Source: Candidatus Falkowbacteria bacterium
GTDB taxonomy: Bacteria > Patescibacteriota > Patescibacteriia > Patescibacteriales > GWE2-39-37
DNA length: 58,268 nucleotides
Direction of reading: 5' to 3'
NCBI GenBank assembly: GCA_013336275.1
Contig: JAAXUA010000002.1
Location: 193,904-252,171, forward strand
Below, piece by piece: positions 43,505 to 45,481 of the stretch (the first letter of the stretch is position 1; the number at the start of each line of letters is the position of its first letter). The notes below the pieces were generated by a model. It was given only the letters and a program-made list of their open reading frames with translations, did not search any database and was not told the DNA's origin. The position numbers and the translations under genes were made by a program.

Positions 43505-44746
43505 TTAGCTTTTGCCGCGATCGGCCATAGCTTGGGCCACTCTTTCAACGGCTAGGGCATAGGCACCGAGACGAAAAGTCGTGCCGTATTTTTCCTTTTC
43601 AGCCCAAACTGATTCGAAGGCTTCGTGCATCATCTTGCTGAGTTTCTCCAGGACCTCTGACTCCTCCCAATAGTAGCCGTAAGCATTCTGTACTTGCTCC
43701 AAATAGCTGACGGTCACGCCGCCAGCATTCGCCAGGATGTCGGGGACGATTACGACGCCTTTTTCGTTGAGTATTTTTTCGGCCTCAGGCGAAGTTGGGC
43801 CATTGGCCATCTCGATTATCAATTTAGCTTTGACTTGGTCAGCATTTTTTGCAGTAATGGCATTTTCCAGAGCTGCGGGAATCAGGATGTCGACATCATA
43901 TGTTATGACGTTATCAGGATCGTCGTTCTCAGTTCCGATGCAGTCGGCGACTGAGCCGGAACTTTCTTTGTGCCGGCGCACCGCTTCGACATCCAGGCCC
44001 ATCGCGTTATGGATGGAGCACTTGGAATCGCTGACGGTCAGTATTTTATAGCCAGCCTCCTGTAAGAGCTGGGCCATGTGGCTGCCGGCATTGCCGAAGC
44101 CTTGGATGGCGATGGTAGCGTGCTTCTTCAGTCCGAGCTTGTGCGCCGCAGCTTCAAGGACGTAAAACGCACCTTGGGCCGTGGCGTAGTCGCGCACCTT
44201 GGAACCGCCGATCGATAAAGGCTTGCCAGTAATAGTACCGGGGCGGTGAGCGCCTATAATGGTTTCGTATTCATCAAGCATCCAGGCCATGATTTGGGCA
44301 TTGGTATTGACGTCGGGGGCCGGAACGTCGAGGTCGGGACCGATATTGCGGTGTAGGGCACGAATGTAACCGCGTGACAACCGCTCCAACTCGCCCGAAG
44401 AAAGCTCTCTGGGGTTGACGATGATTCCGCCTTTGCCACCGCCGAGGGGCAAGTTTAAGACGGCTGTTTTCCAGGTCATCCAGGCTGAAAGCGCCTTGAC
44501 CTCGTTCTCGTTGACGCCCGGGTGAAAACGGATGCCGCCCTTGTAAGCGCCTCTCGCGCTGTTCCATTGCGAACGGAAGCCGGTAAAGACGCGAGTGGTT
44601 CCGTCATCCATTCTGACCGGAATCGAGACTTCGATAAATCGCTCCGGTGCCTGGAGTTGGGCGAAGATATTCGGATTAATTTTTAGGAAATGATTAACCT
44701 GACCTAGCTGCTCGAGAGCAGAGGCTAAAGGGTTGTAATTTTGCAT
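43505..44746 (-). CDS. gdhA: Glu/Leu/Phe/Val dehydrogenase (glutamate dehydrogenase)
   Basis: KGGIRFHP, LPLGGGKGG, DVPAPDVNT, QGFGNAG, EMANGP, PDILANAGGVTVSY. Confidence 0.93.
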   Translation of the reverse strand: MQNYNPLASALEQLGQVNHFLKINPNIFAQLQAPERFIEVSIPVRMDDGTTRVFTGFRSQWNSARGAYKGGIRFHPGVNENEVKALSAWMTWKTAVLNLPLGGGKGGIIVNPRELSSGELERLSRGYIRALHRNIGPDLDVPAPDVNTNAQIMAWMLDEYETIIGAHRPGTITGKPLSIGGSKVRDYATAQGAFYVLEAAAHKLGLKKHATIAIQGFGNAGSHMAQLLQEAGYKILTVSDSKCSIHNAMGLDVEAVRRHKESSGSVADCIGTENDDPDNVITYDVDILIPAALENAITAKNADQVKAKLIIEMANGPTSPEAEKILNEKGVVIVPDILANAGGVTVSYLEQVQNAYGYYWEESEVLEKLSKMMHEAFESVWAEKEKYGTTFRLGAYALAVERVAQAMADRGKS

Positions 44747-44764
44747 ATTTGGATAAGTTAGGGG

Positions 44765-45097
44765 TTAAGCGATGGCTTCGGCCAATTCCTTGGCAAAGGT
44801 CTCTTGGTCGCGGTAGCCGACGAATTCCTTGACGACCTGCCCGTTCTTGAAGAGTTTCATATTGGGAATGCTTTGGATGTTGTATTTGCCAGCGAGTTCG
44901 GCGTGATCCATGTTTTCGACATCAAGCTTGGTGATCTTGATTTTGCCATCAAGCTCCGTCGAAAGGTCGTCCAGTATCGGGGCCATCATGCGGCAGGGCC
45001 CGCACCAAGGAGCCCAGAAATCGACCAGCACAGGCAGGTCGGATTTGATGACTTCATTTTCAAAGGTTTTGTCGGTCAGATTGATTGTCTTGCTCAT
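44765..45097 (-). CDS. trxA: Thioredoxin
   Basis: [16 protein letters not shown]. Confidence 0.96.
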
Positions 45098-45159
45098 AAT
45101 CTCGATTATTTGTTATTTCTTTAAGATACTAGCAGTAGATTAAAAATTCATTAATTTGA

Positions 45160-45423
45160 TCATTTCATCTTTATGATGGCTTCGAGGTGCTTCTTATCTA
45201 TCGGTTCACCGCGATCCAGGCGGCAGAGAACCTCATTTTCCAGAAGCTCCATGGCCAATCCGGCGGCCGCCTGCTTCACTGCCGACAACTGGGTAATGAT
45301 GCCGCTGCAGCTGTCGCCTGATTCGATCATCCGCCTGACACCCTTGATCTGTCCCTCGAGGCGCGCTAGGCGGTTCAAAAGTTTTTTGACCGACGGATCT
45401 TCGGCCGGAATAATCTGCTTCAT
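45160..45423 (-). CDS. CsoR/RcnR/CstR-family repressor
   Basis: LLNRLARLEGQIKGVRRMIE..DSC..IITQLSAV; second Cys in ENEVLC. Confidence 0.9.
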   Translation of the reverse strand: MKQIIPAEDPSVKKLLNRLARLEGQIKGVRRMIESGDSCSGIITQLSAVKQAAAGLAMELLENEVLCRLDRGEPIDKKHLEAIIKMK

Positions 45424-45436
45424 AGTTTGTTGTTTA

Positions 45437-45455
45437 TATACCCTATGGGGGTATA
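45437..45455. promoter_or_regulatory. CsoR-family operator
   Basis: TATACCC-TATGG-GGGTATA: C-tract/G-tract pseudo-palindrome typical of CsoR/CstR operators; overlaps the -10 box. Confidence 0.8.
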
Positions 45456-45481
45456 CTAGCAGATGCTGGAAAGCTTGACAA
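45453..45481 (-). promoter_or_regulatory. Promoter of the repressor-trxA-gdhA operon
   Basis: Minus strand TTGTCA-N17-TAGTAT with TG extension. Confidence 0.65.

Follow-up and report, generated by a model that had tools for sequence, protein, structure and literature searches.

What does a repressor of the CsoR family sense when the genes behind it encode a thioredoxin and a glutamate dehydrogenase (GDH) and not a metal exporter? This question is raised by a locus in a stretch of 58,268 nt from a Candidatus Falkowbacteria bacterium (contig JAAXUA010000002.1, positions 193,904 to 252,171; the whole stretch is called the window here), in which a csoR-type gene, trxA and gdh follow one another on the minus strand. 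The source genome, with a size of about 1.2 Mb and 96.7% complete, belongs to the Patescibacteria, also called candidate phyla radiation (CPR). Patescibacteria account for much of bacterial diversity, and to our knowledge almost nothing is known about their gene regulation and about the ways in which they cope with oxygen.

The inducers known for the CsoR family are Cu, Ni/Co, formaldehyde and persulfide, and an H2O2-specific sensor of this family has not yet been characterised (2024 review, Chem Rev, PMC11672702). That a family member with two cysteines can be a thiol switch is known from CstR, for which in vitro reactions with H2O2 and tetrathionate are described as well (PMC8643695). In the literature library that was searched, no paper turned up that connects CsoR proteins to CPR taxa or to a regulon of trx and gdh. 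For the repressor in the window, we consider it probable (roughly 0.65) that a cysteine-based, non-metal switch senses thiol oxidation and controls the operon. The evidence comes from the operator, from the position of two cysteines and above all from the genes that accompany relatives of this repressor in other genomes.

A predicted operon with a single operator site

The repressor gene (45160-45423, minus strand) encodes 87 aa and matches PF02583 with 68.4 bits at a cut-off of 22.8. It is followed by trxA (44765-45097, minus strand), encoding a 110-aa thioredoxin with the active site WCGPC (TIGR01068, 114.6 bits, cut-off 96.8), and by gdh (43505-44746, minus strand), encoding a 413-aa GDH of the hexameric type (Glu/Leu/Phe/Val dehydrogenase; PF00208 and PF02812), whose closest solved structures are the GDHs of Thermococcus and Pyrococcus. 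These matches bear out the gene assignments of an earlier inspection of the letters without database searches (the sequence-only reading), which had also pointed out that the cargo is not of the metal type; a protein with an HMA domain was found only beside another, canonical CsoR of the genome. The intergenic gaps are 62 nt between csoR and trxA and 18 nt between trxA and gdh, and the promoter/terminator scan called no terminator-like site between csoR and gdh. A terminator-like hairpin CCCGAGAATCGGG followed by the T-run TCTCTTTTTA lies 27 nt past the stop codon of gdh (43466-43478, minus strand). In relatives the gap between csoR and trx or gdh is often merely 5-30 nt, and the 62-nt spacer is common only to a genome of the same genus. 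The unit in the window is a minimal version, with trxA-gdh only, a single operator and no trxB, the gene for thioredoxin reductase (TrxR).

Upstream of csoR, the promoter scan called TTGTCA-17-TAGTAT with 9 of 12 consensus matches, consisting of the -35 hexamer TTGTCA (45476-45481, minus strand) and, after a 17-nt spacer, the TG-extended -10 hexamer TAGTAT (45453-45458, minus strand). An exactly matching 19-bp palindrome, TATACCC-N5-GGGTATA, was located at 45437-45455 (TATACCCTATGGGGGTATA; minus-strand reading TATACCCCCATAGGGTATA). As the sequence-only reading had stated, this operator overlaps the -10 box, of which it covers the last 3 nt; it spans the expected transcription start and lies 14 nt before the ATG. 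In relatives TATAAT or TAATAT is found at the -10 position, directly abutting the operator.

For the genome-wide scan, which the sequence-only reading had named as a check, the core ATACCC-N5-GGGTAT was used. With at most one mismatch it occurs once in the 1.2 Mb genome, namely at this operon, so that on this evidence the regulon consists of this operon alone. With two mismatches, 19 matches were obtained as compared to 14 in the reversed control, which is control level, and most of them lie inside open reading frames (ORFs). Two intergenic near-matches (C2:7086 and C8:64459) were rejected as further operators because no relevant gene adjoins them. In 13 distinct loci, which come from several families of Patescibacteria, the orthologous gene is preceded by the same palindrome, placed alike with respect to the -10 box. 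For the distinct loci L006, L007 and L115, no core site was found within 200 nt upstream of the chosen start, which is doubtful for L006. Such conservation across loci is better evidence for the putative operator than any shuffle test.

A displaced cysteine pair

The sensing residues of CsoR-family proteins occupy positions designated W, X, Y and Z. In the repressor described here Cys39 is the X cysteine, Glu64 takes the Y position and Cys67 stands at Z-1. When the protein was aligned with HMMER to Geobacillus CsoR and two FrmR structures, the alignments were free of gaps and paired Glu64 with the Y histidine and Arg68 with Z, with Cys67 one position before Z. Alignment with MAFFT agrees for Glu64 and renders the shift as the loss of one residue between Y and Z. 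Cys67 is thus found at +28 from Cys39 and not at the canonical +29, and the motif is E-x2-C instead of H-x3-C. Asn63 adjoins Glu64 but aligns with Y-1 and not with Y. The sequence-only reading had noted that both cysteines are kept and that Glu replaces the histidine of CsoR. Both statements hold, the second because of the ungapped alignment of Glu64 with the Y histidine; only the matching of LENEVLC to LxxHxxxC is off by one residue, since Cys67 lies at +28.

In an alignment of 18 members of the clade to which the repressor belongs, both cysteines are invariant at +28, and the Y residue, read by eye, is Glu in 11 rows and Asp in 7. The resulting signature C-x24-[E/D]-x2-C occurs in 14 of the 150 best cluster representatives drawn from a library of 1.84 billion proteins, including most of the top-scoring matches, and none of these 150 has a Cys at +28 together with a Y residue other than Glu or Asp. 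P0031, an 866-aa match with 8 matched stretches, was discarded as a spurious hit to a low-complexity repeat protein.

The AlphaFold2 monomer model (predicted local distance difference test score, pLDDT, of 82) contains helices at residues 10-35, 39-70 and 77-84. Cys39 is the first residue of helix 2, and Glu64 and Cys67 lie inside this same continuous helix (39-70). With a spacing of i, i+3, residues 64 and 67 point to the same side of the helix, much like the canonical pair at i, i+4, and this makes an inter-protomer pair of Cys39 and Cys67' plausible as a prediction from the monomer model. In a Foldseek search the first 19 matches are without exception structures of CsoR, CstR, FrmR or InrS (probability 0.99-1.00; template modelling score, TM, 0.56-0.72), and none of these four types is favoured.

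Two cysteines without a histidine are also what characterises CstR, and the protein could be a genuine CstR-type persulfide sensor, in which Cys39 would be persulfidated and form a di-, tri- or tetrasulfide to Cys67', with thioredoxin reducing persulfidated proteins. CstR is among the closest solved structures, the half-sites TATACCC/GGGTATA and the 5-nt spacer of the operator are identical to those of the Streptococcus mitis cst operator quoted in PMC8643695, and other His-less Patescibacteria CsoRs with a CstR-like C-N-C pattern adjoin trx as well (L102, L104-L106, L118). At sequence level, however, CstR (E 1.3e-7) scores no better than CsoR or FrmR (E about 1e-9), Glu or Asp stands at Y in place of the wedge Asn, and the two cysteines are spaced at +28 and not +29. 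Also, the enzymes that define cst loci, i.e. sulfurtransferase, persulfide dioxygenase, sulfide:quinone oxidoreductase (SQR) and CoA-persulfide reductase (PMC8643695), do not appear beside the regulator in the 17 distinct clade loci, whose neighbours were tested for trx, gdh and trxB. The CstR-type assignment of the sequence-only reading therefore stands for the two cysteines and the missing histidine and falls short in the spacing, the Y residue and the lack of sulfur-detoxification genes nearby; we regard a persulfide sensor as an unlikely alternative. If the switch is of the thiol-oxidation type favoured here, its signal would more probably be a general oxidant or disulfide stress than persulfide specifically, because the cargo is the thioredoxin system instead of sulfur-detoxification enzymes and because the site differs from that of CstR.

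Distribution among Patescibacteria

Gene neighbourhoods were compared for 49 CsoR-family loci, taken partly from relatives and partly from a sample of 400 Patescibacteria genomes. The closest named relatives of the repressor come from metagenome-assembled genomes (MAGs) of the Parcubacteria group, Uhrbacteria and Falkowbacteria. Loci with C-x24-[E/D]-x2-C numbered 20, of which 17 are distinct, and in all of them the repressor gene is followed by trx, gdh and/or trxB on the same strand. None of the 16 Patescibacteria CsoRs with a canonical C-H-C or C-H-H pattern is followed in this way (0/16); upstream TrxB-like matches were seen at two canonical loci, on the opposite strand in L101 and on the same strand in L143, there with 28% identity only. 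Related genomes are not independent samples, and this contrast between signature and canonical loci spans many families. The sequence-only reading had inferred a redox or reactive-sulfur regulon, and the linkage in 17/17 clade loci versus 0/16 canonical ones strongly backs this inference.

The composition of the units varies within the clade. The order trx-gdh occurs in eight signature loci, one of which (L006) runs on into trxB, and trx-trxB occurs in four; three loci have gdh alone, two have gdh-trxB (the trxB match in L117 being just 38-44% identical and situated at the edge of the locus), and in one (L008) trx was the sole neighbour found. In a further scan of 80 loci with one genome per species, the signature was detected only in four CPR loci, all four of them with trx/gdh/trxB linkage, as compared to 0/70 canonical CsoRs, mostly from Firmicutes.

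In these comparisons C-x24-[E/D]-x2-C marks a clade, which was found only in Patescibacteria. The phylogeny proposed by the sequence-only reading as a check was carried out as a quick tree, based on 92 alignment columns and with many forks unresolved; it groups the signature clade (SH-like approximate likelihood ratio test, SH-aLRT, 89) and sets it apart from the clade of canonical Patescibacteria CsoRs (87). Other His-less variants in Patescibacteria, among them C-N-C proteins and a form whose X residue is Ser, are also mostly located beside trx, trxB or gdh. Going by gene order, the wiring of trx, gdh and trxB to a His-less CsoR recurs across the phylum, and the repressor is therefore probably a previously undescribed cysteine redox switch.

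The form with Ser at X was observed in L119 and L121 (genomes G154 and G282), where csoR is located directly before trx, the X cysteine is changed to Ser (GRDSLDIV) and the C-terminal cysteine is kept. With a single cysteine, such a variant would have to switch by another chemistry.

The loci with gdh but no trx speak for a different role, in which the protein would be a metabolite-responsive regulator of glutamate and nitrogen metabolism and trx a passenger: In L090, L096, L097, L116 and L117, csoR is directly followed by gdh without trx. About as many loci, however, have trx and/or trxB and no adjoining gdh (L007, L008, L089, L095 and L115), and both cysteines are invariant. Binding of a metabolite is furthermore not known for any member of the CsoR family (PMC11672702), and such a metabolic role is very improbable.

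Copper, thioredoxin and NAD(P)H genes of the genome

The genome encodes a second CsoR on another contig (C3:119123-119446, minus strand), which is of the canonical x-C-H-C type (NHLKTC). Within the locus L109:1-3240 (C3:117632-120871), it is followed by a His/Cys-rich small protein of 129 aa and by a 611-aa protein starting with an HMA domain (MHCRSC), and it has a different operator, TTACCC...GGGTAA (TTACCCCCCTGGGGAGGGTAA). This is probably the copper-resistance unit of the genome.

The canonical unit bears on the obvious question whether the repressor in the window is a metal sensor after all. Most characterised family members sense metals, the operator is of the type found for canonical Patescibacteria CsoRs, and a site made of Cys39, Cys67' and the Glu64 carboxylate could in chemical terms bind a thiophilic metal such as Cu(I), in which case thioredoxin and GDH would form a metal-stress response. 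With a canonical C-H-C CsoR beside an HMA-domain protein, however, copper sensing would already be covered, as in the CsoR/CstR pair of Staphylococcus aureus. The protein lacks the histidine on which the allosteric Cu(I) switch depends, and it also lacks the N-terminal W-position His or Pro of Ni/Co and formaldehyde sensors, which is not conserved either. The operon contains neither a transporter nor a chaperone, and the 16 other clade loci also adjoin trx, gdh and/or trxB. A metal as the inducer thus appears improbable.

Besides trxA, two more WCGPC thioredoxins are encoded in the genome, the three being about 61% identical to one another. The TrxR-like proteins carry YRK or HRS at the position of the NADPH motif, which is HRR in the TrxR of Escherichia coli, and these residues are not decisive for the donor preference. 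One of the TrxR-like genes lies in a cluster whose first gene encodes an ArsR-family protein with the motif ECCVGE and has a long palindromic sequence in the promoter (L108:1-3900, C1:98071-101970; also L112). The cluster comprises a membrane protein, the TrxR-like protein (CATC, with YRK for HRR), a 348-aa membrane protein, a second thioredoxin and a 120-aa protein that is rhodanese-like by eye only; the cluster forms a unit of its own, for thiol, arsenic or sulfur functions, and has no CsoR-type operator. The other TrxR-like gene, with the site CANC, is found at L107:1-3891 (C3:100420-104310), where two copies of the palindrome GTTCCACGTGGAAC are situated upstream of the promoter.

Members of the Fur/PerR, Spx/ArsC and LysR/OxyR families were not found in the 96.7%-complete genome. 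Also, no glucose-6-phosphate dehydrogenase (G6PD), 6-phosphogluconate dehydrogenase (6PGD) or isocitrate dehydrogenase was found, and a weak match to NAD kinase was obtained. The absence of the three dehydrogenases is consistent with GDH supplying reduced nicotinamide nucleotides, NAD(P)H, to the thioredoxin system. Among the closest GDH structures, some have the PDB molecule name NAD-specific and others name no cofactor, and the preference is not readable from the sequence.

A model of regulation

In the model that we favour, the CsoR-fold repressor would act as a tetramer that binds the palindrome over the -10 box and the start of its own promoter and keeps the csoR-trxA-gdh operon switched off. 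A peroxide, a disulfide-forming oxidant, a reactive sulfur species or an electrophile would oxidise Cys39 together with Cys67 of the partner protomer, located at the end of helix 2, and the product would be a disulfide or polysulfide cross-link. The cross-linked repressor would leave the DNA, so that thioredoxin and GDH are induced. GDH could then provide NAD(P)H for TrxR and/or 2-oxoglutarate, and reduced thioredoxin would re-reduce the repressor and thereby close a homeostatic loop.

Several observations weigh against this model. The operator type also occurs before canonical His-containing CsoRs of Patescibacteria (L098, L123, L127 and others), so that it shows family-typical DNA recognition and not the inducer. 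The spacing of the two cysteines is unlike that of every characterised family member, and a sulfur contact across the dimer lies outside a monomer-only model. For the reducing side of the loop, the two TrxR-like genes sit elsewhere in the genome and have no CsoR-type operator, as is also the case for the other two thioredoxins, and a malic enzyme is present, so that GDH is not the sole candidate source of NAD(P)H. Moreover, the csoR-trxA spacer contains a candidate internal extended -10 element, TGCTAGTAT (45126-45134, minus strand), read from the sequence, which repeats CTGCTAGTAT of the main promoter; the genome of the same genus has TGCTGATAT there. This element is without a -35 hexamer and was not called by the promoter scan. 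It may give a basal, operator-independent expression of trxA-gdh.

A farther-reaching version can be put forward only tentatively, and we would rather doubt it than rely on it: The clade might be the first CsoR-family sensor specific for oxidant or disulfide stress, with a re-registered Cys(X)-Cys(Z-1) pair and a conserved carboxylate. It might then be the main, possibly the only, regulator of thiol-redox stress in bacteria for which the search yielded no OxyR, PerR or Spx family member, tying thioredoxin to GDH as a principal source of NAD(P)H in cells with neither an oxidative pentose-phosphate branch nor isocitrate dehydrogenase.

With a protein of 87 aa, a site of 19 bp and two or three genes as targets, the unit is compact, and it is conserved. 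If the model is true, CPR biology would gain a first candidate for a redox-stress regulator, and the frequent retention of GDH in tiny CPR genomes would have an explanation. The CsoR field would obtain a natural comparison of oxidant versus persulfide specificity, which the want of a characterised H2O2-specific family member has prevented (PMC11672702).

Neighbouring reading frames

Two further ORFs flank the operon. A hydrophobic ORF of 63 aa (43154-43345, minus strand) is preceded at 43399-43372 by a promoter that fits the consensus perfectly (TTGACA-16-TATAAT), and it has no match in Pfam or NCBIfam. On the other side, a divergent gene (45626-46189) encodes an atypical PurE-like protein, with 47.5 bits for TIGR01162 at a cut-off of 149.6.

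Relation to known regulators

By the membership tests applied to its sequence, the repressor is a member of the CsoR superfamily (PF02583) and lacks defining features of Cu-CsoR, CstR, FrmR and RcnR/InrS. It would work most like CstR, although it is not CstR-type in the strict sense. CstR has been characterised in S. aureus, Enterococcus faecalis, Streptococcus pneumoniae and S. mitis (PDB 7MQ1-7MQ3) and corresponds to clusters 3, 4 and 10 of the sequence similarity network (SSN) in PMC8643695, with the wedge Asn at Y in clusters 4 and 10; clusters 6-9 of this network are uncharacterised. Common to both are the CsoR fold, two cysteines without histidine, the (here proposed) function as a thiol-switch repressor, a Cu-sensing CsoR paralogue in the same cell (here a predicted one) and a nearly identical operator (ATATACCC-N-GGGGTATAT). 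The clade differs from CstR in the cysteine spacing (+28 versus +29), in Glu/Asp versus the wedge Asn at Y and in its cargo of thioredoxin and GDH (with TrxR added in relatives) as opposed to sulfide/persulfide detoxification enzymes. Furthermore, it was found only in Patescibacteria, and its sequence is no closer to CstR than to CsoR or FrmR.

With the Cu(I)-sensing CsoRs of Mycobacterium tuberculosis (2HH7), Geobacillus (4M1P), Streptomyces lividans (4ADZ) and Bacillus subtilis, the repressor shares the Pfam family, the predicted three-helix protomer, the conserved helix-1 motif R-x-EGQ-x-x-G and a GC-tract palindromic operator over the promoter. Unlike them, it has no His at Y, its second cysteine is displaced by one residue, and neither copA nor copZ is a neighbour. 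In contrast to FrmR (P-C-H-x), it contains neither Pro2 nor the Y histidine, and its N-terminus, MKQIIP, is variable within the clade. The N-terminal His and the Y His of RcnR and InrS (H-C-H-H or H-C-H-C) are both absent.

Thiol-based regulators of the thioredoxin system are known outside the CsoR family, such as RsrA/SigR-trxBA of Streptomyces, Spx of Bacillus and OxyR. The likeness to them lies in the proposed logic only, in which oxidation of cysteines induces the thioredoxin system and this in turn resets the regulator. They have other folds and are an anti-sigma factor or activators, whereas the candidate switch described here is a CsoR-fold repressor with GDH in its unit.

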